From sequence record OZ035759.1: 64,000 nt of DNA; one strand, given 5' to 3'. The stretch comes from Mosigvirus mar005p1. A model generated the notes under the pieces. It saw only the letters and a list, made by a program, of their open reading frames with translations, made no database searches and was not told the origin of the DNA. A program made the translations under genes and the position numbers. The stretch's first letter is position 1; each line of letters starts with the position of its first letter. Below, piece by piece: positions 58,742 through 63,646 of the stretch.

Positions 58742-59047
58742 TTATTTTCCTCGGCATTCTTTAATGAAATTTTCTAGATTGGTAGATTCAATAGCTTTTT
58801 TACGAGCTTCTGCGTGTTCTTCTTCGGACAATTTACGTTTATAATTGACCCAGACATTATGGTCGAAACCAGACGTGGCATATAATAACAAAGCTCCAAC
58901 GAATAGCAAAAATGGTGATAAAAATATACAACCAGGAACACCATCCATACTGTAAGCCTTTTGTAATACTGCAACAGAAAGAGTTGCGTAAAAAGGTGAT
59001 GCAAGTATTGTTAAAAGACCAATTCGATTGGTTTCTGTTAATTTCAT
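58742..59047 (-). CDS. membrane protein, xFIxECR C-terminal-motif family
   Basis: 101 aa; C-terminus ...ENFIKECRGK. Confidence 0.55.
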   Translation of the reverse strand: MKLTETNRIGLLTILASPFYATLSVAVLQKAYSMDGVPGCIFLSPFLLFVGALLLYATSGFDHNVWVNYKRKLSEEEHAEARKKAIESTNLENFIKECRGK

Positions 59048-59075
59048 AATATTCTCCTCATGTTTTAATAGGACT

Positions 59076-59105
59076 ACTATAACATAGTCCTATAATTGTG
59101 TAAAC
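59076..59105 (-). promoter_or_regulatory. T4-type early promoter
   Basis: Minus strand GTTTACA-~18 nt-TATAGT within GGACTACTATAACATAGTCC cassette. Confidence 0.5.
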
Positions 59106-59117
59106 AGTTTTGTGAAG

Positions 59118-60074
59118 TTATTTGAAAGGTTTTACCATATGGAAATTTTGTTTGAAACGTTTGACGTAATCATTTTTGCCGAGCTTATGATACATAGCCA
59201 CTACTTCATAATAGTTCTCGTATGCGTACTCACGGAACCAACCAGAGGTGATGCTTGTGCAGACTTTTTCTAATGCCATCATGAAACTGGCTTCAGGGTT
59301 AATTTTAAAGTCATTAGGAATCTGAGAACGTTCTAACGCTAGTACACATGATTCTTCGTATACGCCGGCCAATTTGACCATTTCTGGTAATGATTCGAAC
59401 TTCTCGCGTGAGGTCATGACTTCAGAACCATCTTTCATATAAAATGTATACGCTGGACGGTCTGTTAGTGCAATGGCTTCATGAATAGTATCATGGTCAT
59501 ATGTATAGATGTCATCTTTAAAGAACGCACTTTTAGAAGTGTCAAGAACTGGGTGAGCATAATTCAAGGTTTCTTTCTGGCGTTTCAGCATAATTTCAGT
59601 AAGTTCATCGTTCAGTGTAACACCTTTACCACGAAGATACTGAATATGGTTCATAGTCTTTAAAAAGAATGGATTATTTTTCTTGAAACGATGAGACATC
59701 TTAATTGCAAGACATATCTCGGGAGTTGCCCAGTAAAACCCGTTCAAACGGTCTTTAGTCAAATTTTTCTTGGCATATTTTAAAAGGTCATAAGAAGACG
59801 TGAAATCTTCAGGAGTGAGTTCACCAACTAATTCACGGACATTAGTGATTGCCGGAACAATATATGCTTCAAAATGAGTTTCGCGTCCATTATGGAAGCA
59901 TTTGAAAACTTGGACATCAGGGTTATCTTGGTGAACATATACACCCATCATTTGATTTTTGAATGCATTCCAAGAACATTGGTCCGCAATAAAGTCCCAA
60001 TCACTATTTTTGATAGCGCTAGAATCAATAAGACCGTGATAGTGAAGTGCACGAGAACCAATAACTAACAACAT
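59118..60074 (-). CDS. hypothetical protein
   Basis: 318-aa ORF. Confidence 0.55.
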   Translation of the reverse strand: MLLVIGSRALHYHGLIDSSAIKNSDWDFIADQCSWNAFKNQMMGVYVHQDNPDVQVFKCFHNGRETHFEAYIVPAITNVRELVGELTPEDFTSSYDLLKYAKKNLTKDRLNGFYWATPEICLAIKMSHRFKKNNPFFLKTMNHIQYLRGKGVTLNDELTEIMLKRQKETLNYAHPVLDTSKSAFFKDDIYTYDHDTIHEAIALTDRPAYTFYMKDGSEVMTSREKFESLPEMVKLAGVYEESCVLALERSQIPNDFKINPEASFMMALEKVCTSITSGWFREYAYENYYEVVAMYHKLGKNDYVKRFKQNFHMVKPFK

Positions 60075-60102
60075 AATATTTTCCTCGGATTAATTCATTA
60101 AC

Positions 60103-60354
60103 TTAAATTTCACGACATGCGATATTATATTCATCCCAGAGGTCATCATGTGAAGCCTCTACCAATGGAACGATTGTACCGTTTATGTCTTCATTATAAG
60201 GGCAAATTGTACAGTGCGCATCTTCGAATCGGATGCCTTTGTGTTCAGATTTTTTATAACGCATATCGAATATCTTTGCAAACTTTTCACGAGTAATGGT
60301 TTTACCAACCACTTTGGTTCCGATACTTTCGTAATAAATCATTGTGGACTCCAT
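60103..60354 (-). CDS. hypothetical protein
   Basis: 83-aa ORF. Confidence 0.5.
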   Translation of the reverse strand: MESTMIYYESIGTKVVGKTITREKFAKIFDMRYKKSEHKGIRFEDAHCTICPYNEDINGTIVPLVEASHDDLWDEYNIACREI

Positions 60355-60370
60355 TTGTTTTGATAGGACT

Positions 60371-60400
60371 ACTATAACATAGCCCTATCTTGTTGTAAAC
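60371..60400 (-). promoter_or_regulatory. T4-type early promoter
   Basis: Minus strand GTTTACA-~18 nt-TATAGT. Confidence 0.5.
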
Positions 60401-60404
60401 TGTT

Positions 60405-60602
60405 TTAGCAAGAATAACTAGATGATACCCAGCCTTGAACAGTGATACTATTGTGGGATAATGAGATCGCGTCCTGGAGATTCAGACCTGCGTTATCTTC
60501 AATCCATAATGTAACTTCTTCGCGTTCTTCTGTTGCAATTTGGAACAGGTTTTCCAGAGCAGCTACTGCCGTACGTACAGCACAATCTAATTCACGAGAC
60601 AT
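60405..60602 (-). CDS. small protein, WV(S/A)SSxxC C-terminal family (member 1)
   Basis: 65 aa; C-terminus QGWVSSSYSC. Confidence 0.5.
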   Translation of the reverse strand: MSRELDCAVRTAVAALENLFQIATEEREEVTLWIEDNAGLNLQDAISLSHNSITVQGWVSSSYSC

Positions 60603-60611
60603 ATTGTTTCC

Positions 60612-60884
60612 TTAGCAAGTGTGAGAAGATGCGACCCAACCACCAGTTTCGAGGCTCAGGTTGTAGTCGTATTGGTAAACGTCGGCCCATTCAGCATAGC
60701 CGTTTTTTGTACAACGTTCAAGATCGGCTTTAAGATGTCCGGGTGAATGATAGGTTCCACCCATACCATAAGCTGGATACAAGTCGAATGTTGTGTTTTG
60801 TTTATCAGCAATTTCTTTGGCAGCCTCAATAGCAGCATAGATTTTTGCTACAGCTTCAGCCAGTTCGGTTTGTTCTTTAGACAT
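60612..60884 (-). CDS. small protein, WV(S/A)SSxxC C-terminal family (member 2)
   Basis: 90 aa; C-terminus GGWVASSHTC. Confidence 0.5.
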   Translation of the reverse strand: MSKEQTELAEAVAKIYAAIEAAKEIADKQNTTFDLYPAYGMGGTYHSPGHLKADLERCTKNGYAEWADVYQYDYNLSLETGGWVASSHTC

Positions 60885-60893
60885 AATGATTCC

Positions 60894-61199
60894 TTAGCAC
60901 AACGCAGAAGACGAAACCCAAGCACCTTCAGTAATAACGTAACCATTACCTTCACGCTTAACATCGCCACCATTATTTTCAATTTCATCTTTCATCCACT
61001 GGGATACGATTTCACCCTTAGGATAATAAGTACGACCGCTACCATAATCACCTACAGAAAACGATACTGCATATTGGTCTGCGATCTTTGTTGCTTCTTC
61101 TTCGATACGTTCAGCTTGATTCAGAAGTTTATAAATTGCATCTGAAGCAGATTTGGCATCATTAAACTCTGGTACTTTAATTTCAATAATCTTACTCAT
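60894..61199 (-). CDS. small protein, WV(S/A)SSxxC C-terminal family (member 3)
   Basis: 101 aa; C-terminus GAWVSSSALC. Confidence 0.5.
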   Translation of the reverse strand: MSKIIEIKVPEFNDAKSASDAIYKLLNQAERIEEEATKIADQYAVSFSVGDYGSGRTYYPKGEIVSQWMKDEIENNGGDVKREGNGYVITEGAWVSSSALC

Positions 61200-61555
61200 T
61201 TTCTACATTCCTTAATAAAGTTTTCGATTGTTTCATTTTCACGTCTAGCTAGGAGTTCATTATAACTAATCATTTGAGAAGCGTAAACCTTTTTATTTTT
61301 CTTGTTATGGTTTATAAAATCATAGTAAAAATAGACTACAGTACAAAATGATGCGATGGATGCAAAGGCTTGGGTATACCGTAAGTCCTGCCATTGGTCT
61401 GTGAATCCGCCGGTATTCCCTATAAATCCTAACACAACTCCGTCAATAAGAAATCCAACTAATCCAAAGGCAAATCCCATGCCAATACCCATAATAAAAA
61501 TTAGAATGTTCTCACCAAGAGAAGGCCATACGGTTAAGAGTTGAGGCTTTTGCAT
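61196..61555 (-). CDS. membrane protein, xFIxECR C-terminal-motif family
   Basis: 119 aa; C-terminus ...ENFIKECRK. Confidence 0.55.
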   Translation of the reverse strand: MQKPQLLTVWPSLGENILIFIMGIGMGFAFGLVGFLIDGVVLGFIGNTGGFTDQWQDLRYTQAFASIASFCTVVYFYYDFINHNKKNKKVYASQMISYNELLARRENETIENFIKECRK

Positions 61556-61959
61556 CTTATTTCCTTAACGAATTCCATAGCTTCTTCATATTCATACTTT
61601 TTAACAGCTTCATCATACTGAGCTTGGGCTTTTGCGCACTGAACTTTCCATTCTCTTAATCGGGCTCTGTGATGACGGCCTTGGTGCCAATATCCCACCC
61701 AATTAATAGGCATTAATAAAAACGGTACAATAAGTGGTGCGACGAACATTAATGAAAATGCTGCATCAGACGATATAACTTTATTGGAATCTAAAACAGC
61801 TCCTATAATCATAAAGATTAAAAATGCTAAAGCTAAAATAGGGCCAAATAGTACTTCGTTTGGGATTAATTTACGTTTGTATTCGTATGCCCAGGGCTTA
61901 ATTGGCATGTACAGGGTTGGCTTTGACATATTCTCTACATTCCATAATAAATTGCTCAA
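61534..61959 (-). CDS. membrane protein, related C-terminal motif (EFVKEIRCK)
   Basis: 141-aa ORF with TM helices. Confidence 0.5.
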   Translation of the reverse strand: MSNLLWNVENMSKPTLYMPIKPWAYEYKRKLIPNEVLFGPILALAFLIFMIIGAVLDSNKVISSDAAFSLMFVAPLIVPFLLMPINWVGYWHQGRHHRARLREWKVQCAKAQAQYDEAVKKYEYEEAMEFVKEIRCKSLNS

Positions 61960-62515
61960 GGATTAAATTGTTAGTGAAATTAGGACTAACAACCATAGTT
62001 TCATAAAGCGCATCAATAGCACTTAAAGCATCAACTCTTTTAAGCAAAGGCTTGCCTTCATACATAGTTTCAGAATCGACGATTAAAGTGAAGTAGTATT
62101 TTTTATTATTGACCAGAACTTCTGTATCAATATAAAACATGTTAGACCTTAAAAGCTTGTCTCTAAAACCATAATAATCTTTAGAGCGTTCGCTGATATA
62201 TTCCCATTCAGTGTTTAAACAACAAACAGACCATGTAGGAGCAACGAAATCGGTGAATCTAATATCATGGTCTGCAACTAGTTTAGCAATAGCTCCGATA
62301 TCATGAATCATAATACCTGGGGCTAATAAAGATTTTCGGTTATTTGCATATTCAGTTGTCTCATAAGAAGACGACCAGTACCATTTACGTCCAGTTGCAA
62401 CATATCGTAATGAATCAACTAAAGACGTAGGTGGATTTACCTTATCTCGGAACTCTTCGAACATTGAGTCAATATCATTATTTTGGTTTCGCATGTTAAC
62501 TCCTTTATTATCCAA
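61898..62515 (-). CDS. hypothetical protein with C-terminal QFIMECR motif
   Basis: 205-aa ORF. Confidence 0.5.
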   Translation of the reverse strand: MDNKGVNMRNQNNDIDSMFEEFRDKVNPPTSLVDSLRYVATGRKWYWSSSYETTEYANNRKSLLAPGIMIHDIGAIAKLVADHDIRFTDFVAPTWSVCCLNTEWEYISERSKDYYGFRDKLLRSNMFYIDTEVLVNNKKYYFTLIVDSETMYEGKPLLKRVDALSAIDALYETMVVSPNFTNNLILEQFIMECREYVKANPVHAN

Positions 62516-63435: not shown

Positions 63436-63481
63436 TTTGTTTTCCTCTTGATTTGATGTGATTACTATAACATAAACTTAC

Positions 63482-63646
63482 TTAGATGTAAATTATTTCA
63501 ACGTCACCTTTAGCTGCTTTATAACCTTCAGCCCAAGATACAACAGAGTTTTTATCTGAGGATTCAAATTCAGGCATTGGACTTTCACCAATATTCACAC
63601 AGTACGTTTCTTCATTTTCATCGAACCAAATAATTAAAGTAGTCAT
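63482..63646 (-). CDS. small hypothetical protein (54 aa)
   Basis: ORF below track threshold, flanked by early-promoter cassettes. Confidence 0.3.
   Translation of the reverse strand: MTTLIIWFDENEETYCVNIGESPMPEFESSDKNSVVSWAEGYKAAKGDVEIIYI

Follow-up and report, generated by a model that had tools for sequence, protein, structure and literature searches.

What is the role of three small adjacent genes whose products all end in nearly the same cysteine-terminated tail? The question is raised by positions 60405-61199 of a 64,000-nucleotide (nt) stretch of DNA from Mosigvirus mar005p1 (sequence record OZ035759.1; the whole stretch is called the window here), where three tandem minus-strand genes encode proteins of 101, 90 and 65 amino acids (aa), named copies 1, 2 and 3 below. 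A preliminary description of the sequence had taken these genes for paralogues, had regarded the family as unexplained and had suggested that the tail could be a recognition tag for processing, modification or packaging. The analysis reported here indicates that the trio belongs to a phage-only, uncharacterized protein family, and that the three genes and a neighbouring gene for a nucleotidyltransferase-fold enzyme (59118-60074) probably form a two-component phage module.

The three genes are real open reading frames (ORFs) on the minus strand (Table 1). All of their products start with MS and end with QGWVSSSYSC (copy 3), GGWVASSHTC (copy 2) and GAWVSSSALC (copy 1), as had been described. By sequence comparison they are paralogues: pairwise BLASTP gave an E value of 3e-6 between copies 1 and 2, and of 4e-4 and 1e-3 between copy 3 and the other two. 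Copy 2 contains the canonical AYGMGGTY motif and copy 1 a DYGSGRTYYP version of the same hairpin, while copy 3 is a shortened paralogue that lacks the central Y-G-x-G-G-T-Y hairpin. Intervals of 9 nt separate the genes, with TGC-TAA-GGA at each junction, so that the end of one gene supplies the Shine-Dalgarno site of the next. At the other end of the array, the start of copy 1 overlaps the stop of an e.3-like gene by 4 nt (ATGA). When all six frames of the window were scanned for W[VILM][SATG]S[SAT], five matches were obtained, of which only those in the trio stand in the ORF-end context G-W-V-x-S-S-x-x-C-stop; the other two lie in frames interrupted by stop codons. The N-terminal regions had been called acidic and divergent. 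The acidity was borne out and in fact applies to the whole proteins (pI 4.2-4.8), whereas 'divergent' proved too simple a description, as this region holds an amphipathic helix conserved in the family (A..I......A..IAD.yg..F).

Bases 60000-61600 of the window are 98-99% identical to many Mosigvirus genomes, which are RB69-like T4-type phages of E. coli and Shigella. The annotation of these relatives places the trio in a part of the early region that has the lysozyme gene e on one side and the tRNA cluster on the other. It is the counterpart of RB69ORF136c-139c, labelled hypothetical in every record inspected, and the two PHROGs groups that match the trio, phrog_899 and phrog_4882, have no assigned function. 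In the RB69 reference (NC_004928.1, 69737-70040), the counterpart of copy 1 is broken into two ORFs, RB69ORF139c (71 aa) and RB69ORF138c, apparently by a frameshift or a sequencing error, and that copy consequently has no intact tail.

Orthologues of the small proteins were recovered by word-indexed searches and tblastn from phages of Escherichia, Klebsiella, Enterobacter, Serratia, Citrobacter, Yersinia, Edwardsiella, Aeromonas, Acinetobacter, Pseudomonas, Erwinia and Stenotrophomonas, and from metagenomes. An exhaustive profile search against 1.8 billion representatives returned 906 clusters (counted at 50% identity) at E ≤ 1e-3 and 289 at E ≤ 1e-10. Four parts make up the family: the N-terminal amphipathic helix, a Y-G-M-G-G-T-Y-Y hairpin, an acidic linker rich in Asp, Glu, Ser, Gly and Tyr, and the tail G-W-x-[SAP]-S-S-x-x-C. 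Acidity is general (median pI 4.5, net charge -8.5), and 117 of 190 members have no Cys other than the terminal one. The profile match nearly always extends to the last residue. Among 142 new top representatives 136 end in Cys, and within these 136 Trp(-7) and Ser(-4) are invariant and Ser(-3) is present in 134; Thr, Ala or a C-terminal extension is almost never seen at the tail positions. In 96 distinct genes the Ser positions are encoded by both the TCN and AGY boxes and the Cys by both TGC and TGT, which indicates a constraint on the protein and not on the DNA or on an overlapping Shine-Dalgarno site. That the Cys codon is kept merely as part of the TAAGGA Shine-Dalgarno sequence is also ruled out by its retention in the last gene of each array and in distant phages, as TGC and as TGT.

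The tail, the most conserved feature of the family, is retained even where little else is. Between detected family members and the enzyme gene there are paralogues that the family hidden Markov model (HMM) does not detect, in which the helix and the tail alone are kept, for example ...DWNSSSYNC, ...RAWHSSMC, ...IDWNYSSC and ...WEGSSC. Such persistence on bodies that the HMM no longer recognizes agrees with a recognition element common to otherwise variable proteins. Conservation of the tail, first proposed from three neighbouring genes, thus holds both for orthologues and for these remote paralogues.

Several observations and rejected assignments concern individual members of the family. Escherichia phage ESCO10, a Dhakavirus, has five tandem tail-bearing paralogues (L003, 2992-4239) compared with three in the window, and its 74-aa copy contains an internal WLNSSC besides the terminal WYPSSC, a sequence pattern that suggests an internal duplication of the tail. 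A Dhakavirus orthologue carries the label 'inhibitor of prohead protease', which was rejected because the T4 gene names in ESCO10 are out of register; T4 Inh is phrog_1051, not phrog_899. The product names in this record (OM386655.1; head outer capsid protein, inhibitor of prohead protease, helicase, UvsY, baseplate) follow the T4 order on unrelated small genes, and such off-register transfer of annotation could mislead database users. T4 Tk.1 gave a weak HMM match (E=7e-4 in a tiny database) and, having neither tail nor hairpin, was rejected as a member.

The main new finding is a conserved partner gene downstream of the trio. Two very distant family members, one in a 122-kb metagenomic phage and the other in a 371-kb jumbo phage, provided the first sighting, as both were located just upstream of a DUF7275 gene. 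In the window, the corresponding gene lies 330 nt from the array, also on the minus strand. From the side of the small proteins, 42 loci were found in IMG/VR by a DNA pattern for YGMGGTY. A DUF7275 gene is located downstream on the same strand in 40 of them (gap -113 to 1371 nt), and in the remaining two the contig ends immediately after the small genes; hence the linkage is 40/40 where the flank is sufficient. Each of these loci has one to five family copies upstream of the DUF7277/DUF7275 gene. From the side of the enzyme, 74 of 80 loci contain 1-6 small ORFs that bear the tail or are HMM-positive within 3.5 kb upstream, against a background of one tail pattern in the 2583 other ORFs of the same 80 loci. 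The small genes were never seen without the enzyme where flank was available, and the enzyme was occasionally seen without the small genes.

The 80 enzyme loci were divided into 18 groups at 60% enzyme identity, with less than 60% between groups, and all of their ORFs were clustered. The nucleotidyltransferase is common to all 18 groups and the small family to 16. The only other cluster present in at least four groups is an antisense ORF inside the coordinates of the nucleotidyltransferase gene. Flanking contexts differ wholly between lineages and comprise DNA polymerase/RecA/DnaB, Rnl1/PNKP, gp41 or e/nudE genes. Three copies precede the enzyme in Acinetobacter phage AM101, and two copies follow it in Stenotrophomonas phage Mendera. 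A linkage that is strong, specific in strand and order, and independent of context is best explained by functional coupling of the small proteins and the nucleotidyltransferase, and it is likely that the trio functions together with the enzyme.

Candidate fusions of a small protein to the enzyme were rejected: the overlaps in L023 and L027 are artefacts of the choice of the first ATG, and the 411-aa enzyme of L029 has an unrelated N-terminal extension. One nucleotidyltransferase group without a detectable partner (IMG/VR contigs L197, L198, L200 and L230) has SGRFRT in place of the otherwise invariant SGWFRE; anecdotally, this sequence variant may hint at a partner-binding site or may reflect decay. 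In L200 the nucleotidyltransferase gene appears to be split.

By structure, the 318-aa partner protein is a nucleotidyltransferase of the kind of MenT and ANT. No PDB entry is related to it in sequence, NCBIfam and PADLOC gave no match, and a Pfam scan at E ≤ 1 returned DUF7275 and DUF7277 only. Its family comprises 2131 representatives of clusters at 90% identity, and the approximately 2100 homologues are all annotated as hypothetical save for an occasional 'putative nucleotidyltransferase'. In structural comparison (PDB entry and score in brackets), the best match was the MenT1 toxin (8AN4, 9.8), followed by TglT/MenT3 (6J7N, 8.5), ANT(2'') (4XJE, 8.4), MenT4 (6Y56, 7.6) and LnuA (4WH5, 7.0); further small nucleotidyltransferases matched as well. 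Residues invariant in the family are G6-S7 after strand 1, D25-x-D27 in strand 2 and E69 in a later strand, to which the helical lobe adds K125 and D193/H194/D195. This set fits the Pol-beta nucleotidyltransferase pattern, and the bi-lobed fold with G/S-x-D-x-D, a catalytic Lys and an Asp is present; the published catalytic set of MenT is T/S-x-D, D, K, D. Since there is no Pfam match to DUF1814/AbiEii, the enzyme is not filed here as a member of the MenT family.

The 101-aa protein was modelled with AlphaFold2 from an alignment of 28 sequences, with a mean predicted local distance difference test (pLDDT) score of 91.4. In the model a long helix (residues 15-43) packs on a small beta-sheet, the last strand of which is formed by residues 93-96 (AWVS) and is followed by a one-turn helix (97-100). 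The terminal residue has a pLDDT of 61 and is therefore probably exposed. A comparison of the small protein with the PDB gave neither a fold match nor a sequence match, and the fold, predicted with high confidence, is novel.

The module behaves as a cassette. In T4, e.2 directly abuts e.3, while in the window the nucleotidyltransferase gene, an 83-aa ORF and the trio are located between the homologues of these two genes. With an empty e.2-e.3 junction in T4, these genes thus behave as a cassette that is missing from T4 at this site. The 92 kb of T4 that were scanned, which exclude positions 76-105 kb and 115-169 kb, yielded no member of either family. Elsewhere the module is spread over T4-like, rV5-like, ~100-kb and jumbo phages, including those of Escherichia, Klebsiella, Acinetobacter, Aeromonas and Pseudomonas. 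Cellular genomes were scanned with DNA patterns, one genome from each of 185,579 bacterial and archaeal species, a procedure that reaches the YGMGGTY-containing subfamily only. The AYGMGGTYY pattern had no match; the YGMGGTY pattern had 103, among which there was no family member and no DUF7275 neighbour, tail-only paralogues being outside the reach of the pattern.

The surrounding signals resemble those of genes expressed early in infection. A middle promoter-like site lies inside the e.3-like gene, ~60 nt upstream of copy 1, and its counterpart in the near-identical phage SA79RD is annotated as a T4 middle (MotA-type) promoter. An early-type site is located between the array and the 83-aa ORF and is overlapped by a hairpin (~60363-60388) that the SA79RD annotation gives as a terminator; no T-run follows the hairpin, which makes this function doubtful. 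The late promoter consensus TATAAATA does not occur within kilobases of the trio, and its only four sites in the whole window are all elsewhere. Judged from these sequence elements, a middle/early promoter-like context with no late promoter nearby points to expression before late transcription and argues against a role in the virion.

Table 1. Features of the module and its surroundings in the window
Feature	Position	Strand	Basis and remarks
Copy 1, 101 aa, ...EGAWVSSSALC	60894..61199	-	ORF; phrog_899 (E=1.3e-22); own family HMM (E=4.7e-27); orthologues recovered
Copy 2, 90 aa, ...TGGWVASSHTC	60612..60884	-	ORF; phrog_899 (E=3.5e-19); own family HMM (E=4e-27)
Copy 3, 65 aa, ...VQGWVSSSYSC	60405..60602	-	ORF; phrog_4882 (E=7.7e-37); own family HMM (E=1.5e-12)
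83-aa ORF between array and nucleotidyltransferase gene, motif H-C-T-I-C-P-Y-N-E-D	60103..60354	-	phrog_3723 (E=1.7e-36)
Nucleotidyltransferase-fold protein, 318 aa, DUF7277 + DUF7275	59118..60074	-	Pfam; conserved downstream partner gene of the array
Middle promoter-like site TTTACG-17-TATAAT, GCTT 14 nt before the -10 hexamer	61259..61287	-	Consensus scan, 10/12
Early-type promoter-like site TTTACA-17-TATAGT, extended TG	60371..60399	-	Consensus scan, 10/12; between array and 83-aa ORF

In the reading that we favour, the trio represents three paralogous copies of a phage-specific small acidic protein, consisting of an amphipathic helix on a small beta-sheet and a W-x-S-S-x-x-C-COOH end. Together with the nucleotidyltransferase these would form a module expressed before late transcription and passed as a movable cassette among large virulent phages. 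The small proteins would be protein partners of the enzyme, which the constant helix and tail would engage, the tail acting as a shared docking or acceptor element, while the hypervariable bodies would give each paralogue its own downstream role. In the preferred version, the invariant Ser-Ser hydroxyls by the free Cys terminus would accept a nucleoside monophosphate (NMP) or phosphate from the enzyme, and the small proteins would then be clients and not inhibitors. The data establish the paralogy, the conservation of the tail, a confidently predicted novel fold, the gene linkage, and a nucleotidyltransferase fold with its complete catalytic motifs, while binding between the partners, a modification of any kind, its acceptor residue and the target of the module are inferred.

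Further considerations point in this direction. The enzyme usually has several partners (1-6), with bodies diverged beyond recognition and a constant helix and tail, which favours multiple partners sharing an enzyme-addressed element over a single inhibitor. Among relatives of the enzyme fold, ANT and LnuA transfer NMP to antibiotic hydroxyls, MenT transfers NMP to the 3'-OH of tRNA, and MenT toxins auto-phosphorylate inside their own active site; with such hydroxyl-directed transfer and auto-phosphorylation among the relatives, the Ser-Ser beside the terminal Cys is a plausible acceptor. We put the client model forward tentatively, as a good possibility. Taken furthest, it would describe a new phage protein-tagging system, in which a MenT/ANT-like nucleotidyltransferase would nucleotidylylate or phosphorylate the Ser-Ser of fast-evolving small acidic effectors and so switch them on or target them in early infection; as a whole this is speculative and rather unlikely. 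If true, W-x-SS-x-x-C-COOH would be a C-terminal tag, addressed by an enzyme, of which nothing was known before and which has been seen in large virulent phages only.

A number of observations weigh against the client model. About 7% of the enzyme loci have no detectable small partners, and in a few the small genes are truly missing; a clade of KVP40 and actinophages (Streptomyces phages) has a divergent, shorter enzyme and likewise no detectable partner. The enzyme must therefore have a function independent of the small proteins. The W-V-S of the tail is a beta-strand within the fold of the AlphaFold2 monomer and not a free-floating tag, so part of the conservation may be structural and not directed to the enzyme. 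Ser(-4) is strict and never replaced by Thr, which exceeds the stringency of most acceptor sites. The number of residues between the Ser pair and the final Cys ranges from 0 to 3, an unexpected feature in a rigid active-site substrate, and one type of paralogue has an internal WxNSSC copy. Co-transcription may also not be strict, given the hairpin and the early-type site between the trio and the enzyme gene. The original interpretation is thus supported in part: a recognition tag for modification has become a reasonable hypothesis, as the family nearly always lies beside a nucleotidyltransferase-fold enzyme.

An alternative which also makes the two components partners is that the small proteins are antitoxin-like regulators that bind and restrain, or time, the nucleotidyltransferase, with the acidic body and the tail serving as a pseudo-substrate (a mimic of the tRNA 3' end) that plugs the active site. 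The placement of one or more small genes upstream of a nucleotidyltransferase-fold gene on the same strand is the order of MenA1-MenT1, and MenT1 is the best structural match; the uniform acidity of the small proteins would be matched by the electropositive substrate cavity of MenT toxins, and the small genes are never seen without the enzyme. However, one inhibitor would suffice, and the genes normally come in arrays of 2-6 very dissimilar paralogues. In fold and sequence the small protein resembles neither MenA1 nor AbiEi nor any PDB entry, and the enzyme itself falls outside DUF1814/AbiEii in Pfam. Moreover, a virulent phage hardly needs to neutralize its own toxin, some phages carry the enzyme alone, and the 103 motif matches in cellular genomes yielded no family member or DUF7275 neighbour, unlike toxin-antitoxin systems. 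This regulator role is unlikely on balance, though the most probable of the rival readings. In another alternative the adjacency is incidental: the small proteins would be independent host-directed effectors, for example in anti-defence or host takeover, whose tails dock into a common host target, and the nucleotidyltransferase would be a neighbour by co-mobilization in a hyperplastic early region. Small acidic proteins in an early/middle-type promoter-like context are typical of T4-type host-takeover and anti-restriction genes, variation in copy number and fast-diverging bodies suggest an arms race, and T4 and Mosigvirus differ in the stretch from e to the tRNA genes. Yet adjacency, order and strand are kept in 16 of 18 very divergent groups that share no other neighbour, and the linkage holds in jumbo, 90-120-kb and T4-like phages on Escherichia, Aeromonas, Acinetobacter, Pseudomonas, Stenotrophomonas and uncultured marine or freshwater hosts. 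That so many hosts offer one and the same target is less likely than that the phages encode a common partner, and we consider independent effectors unlikely.

The remaining explanations concern the tail itself. It could be purely structural, with the Trp in the core, the Ser and Cys residues capping the last strand, and the terminal Cys either incidental or metal-binding. The strand and short helix that the tail forms in a confidently predicted fold agree with this, and so does the terminal Cys being the only one in most members, as no intramolecular disulfide or zinc finger is then possible. Structural positions usually tolerate conservative exchange, however, and here Ser(-4), Ser(-3) and the final Cys tolerate almost none; the tail also persists in paralogues that lack the central hairpin and most of the sheet, and its last residue, modelled with low confidence, is probably exposed. 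A purely structural tail is accordingly improbable. Least probable is a processing or packaging tag, whether on head-internal or other virion proteins or on precursors like those of ribosomally synthesized and post-translationally modified peptides (RiPPs), with the Cys-terminated tail being cleaved or cyclized. There are L/I-x-E motifs near the N-termini, the S-x-x-C spacing resembles a lanthionine-forming motif, and one database record names an orthologue an inhibitor of prohead protease; that label is the off-register artefact described above. The packaging part of the original suggestion is not supported: late promoters are absent from the vicinity, the site upstream resembles a MotA-type middle promoter, and the N-termini have no T4-type capsid-targeting sequence. 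Processing of the RiPP kind fares no better, as Pfam recognizes no RiPP maturase in the cassette and the flanking DNA, the prediction for the proteins is one of folded domains (pLDDT 91) and not of leader-core peptides, and a spacing of 0-3 residues between the Ser pair and the Cys is incompatible with a fixed ring.

The genes around the module show further features. The 83-aa ORF (phrog_3723) occupies the same position in the Tevenvirinae loci inspected (window, L003, L019). At the edge of the cassette, ~269 bp are missing from the window (~59047-59118) relative to L001 (2780-3118); in phages JK36 and SA79RD this segment carries a 66-aa coiled-coil ORF and a terminator between the e.2-like gene and the nucleotidyltransferase gene, and the difference is a small indel polymorphism. 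The early-type sequence TTTACA-17-TATAGT with extended TG recurs three times in 4.5 kb upstream of minus-strand genes (59076-59104, 60371-60399 and 63464-63492) and looks like reiterated T4-type early promoters punctuating the region. The e.2-, e.3-, e.4- and e.5-like neighbours (58742-59047, 61196-61555, 61534-61959 and 61898-62515, all on the minus strand) share a different C-terminal motif (...NLENFIKECRGK, ...IENFIKECRK, ...AMEFVKEIRCKSLNS and ...LEQFIMECREYVK...), of which the Dhakavirus versions (L003, 2113-2649 and 2624-2995) read ...RFIKECREYAK and ...ETFIKECKS. By this motif they may constitute another family of paralogues, with its own tail signature, at the flanks of the cassette. 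The e.3-like gene and one other gene of this stretch are annotated as putative membrane proteins in related phages. A 'sulfurtransferase' label in JK36 (L001, 5535-5909, JK36_00139) was considered for the trio and rejected, as the gene so labelled is that of the e.4-like membrane protein; even there it is probably spurious, the window orthologue having no Pfam match at E ≤ 0.01.

Known systems resemble the module in part. The closest by structure is MenA1-MenT1 of Mycobacterium tuberculosis (PDB 8AN4/8AN5; PMC10435456). The phage enzyme differs in its missing DUF1814/AbiEii match, and the small proteins share neither sequence nor fold with MenA1, nor was any homology to a cognate antitoxin found (MenA1, MenA3/AbiEi COG5340 or related). 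In the phages, one to six divergent paralogues form an array, with the invariant W-x-SS-x-x-C end that the MenA antitoxins do not have. MenAT and AbiE are resident in bacterial and archaeal genomes and mobile elements, whereas the phage module is found in virulent phages and had no member in the motif-based cellular scan. ANT(2'') and LnuA act on small molecules and have no partner protein, no long conserved C-terminal helical domain such as DUF7275 and no phage context.

With respect to chemistry, the nearest analogies are protein-directed nucleotidyltransferase pairs. GlnD-PII and GlnE-GS are such pairs, and in MntA-HepT (MNT/HEPN) a Tyr is poly-AMPylated (PMC7641770). In all of these a Pol-beta-fold enzyme acts on a specific hydroxyl of a small partner encoded adjacently, which by analogy is the chemistry that could apply to the Ser-Ser tail. 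The phage small proteins are not homologous to HepT or PII, and the acceptors in those systems are Tyr residues in loops, compared with a candidate Ser beside a C-terminal Cys. A different likeness is offered by C-terminal tag systems, such as the ubiquitin-like proteins and ThiS/MoaD with their Gly-Gly end, and by multi-copy RiPP precursor arrays served by one maturase, as for the prochlorosins. Like the phage module, these combine several substrate genes, a constant recognition element, a variable remainder and one adjacent enzyme gene, with a strict residue requirement at the very C-terminus. Their activating enzymes, however, are E1-like, LanM or radical SAM proteins and not Pol-beta nucleotidyltransferases, and the phage small proteins are folded acidic domains, neither leader-core peptides nor beta-grasp proteins.

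In the literature, neither the RB69 ORF names nor the DUF or PHROG numbers led to anything relevant, and the same holds for phage MenT-like enzymes that have tail-tagged partners, so that, within the literature and databases searched, the family is as unexplained as it had first appeared. The fold of the enzyme is already known, as is the concept of pairing a nucleotidyltransferase with a small protein; not known before are the partner family, its invariant Cys-terminated tail, the multi-copy arrays and their occurrence in large virulent phages. Two large phage protein families without a function turn out to form one tightly linked module, and its absence from the syntenic site of the model phage T4, together with that of both families from the part of T4 examined, may explain how it escaped study. 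The invariant tail provides a simple experimental handle, which makes the question directly testable. As the nearest structural relatives of the enzyme are tRNA-modifying toxins and hydroxyl-directed nucleotidyltransferases, the module could serve large virulent phages to manipulate translation, to counter tRNA-directed defences or to modify their own effectors.

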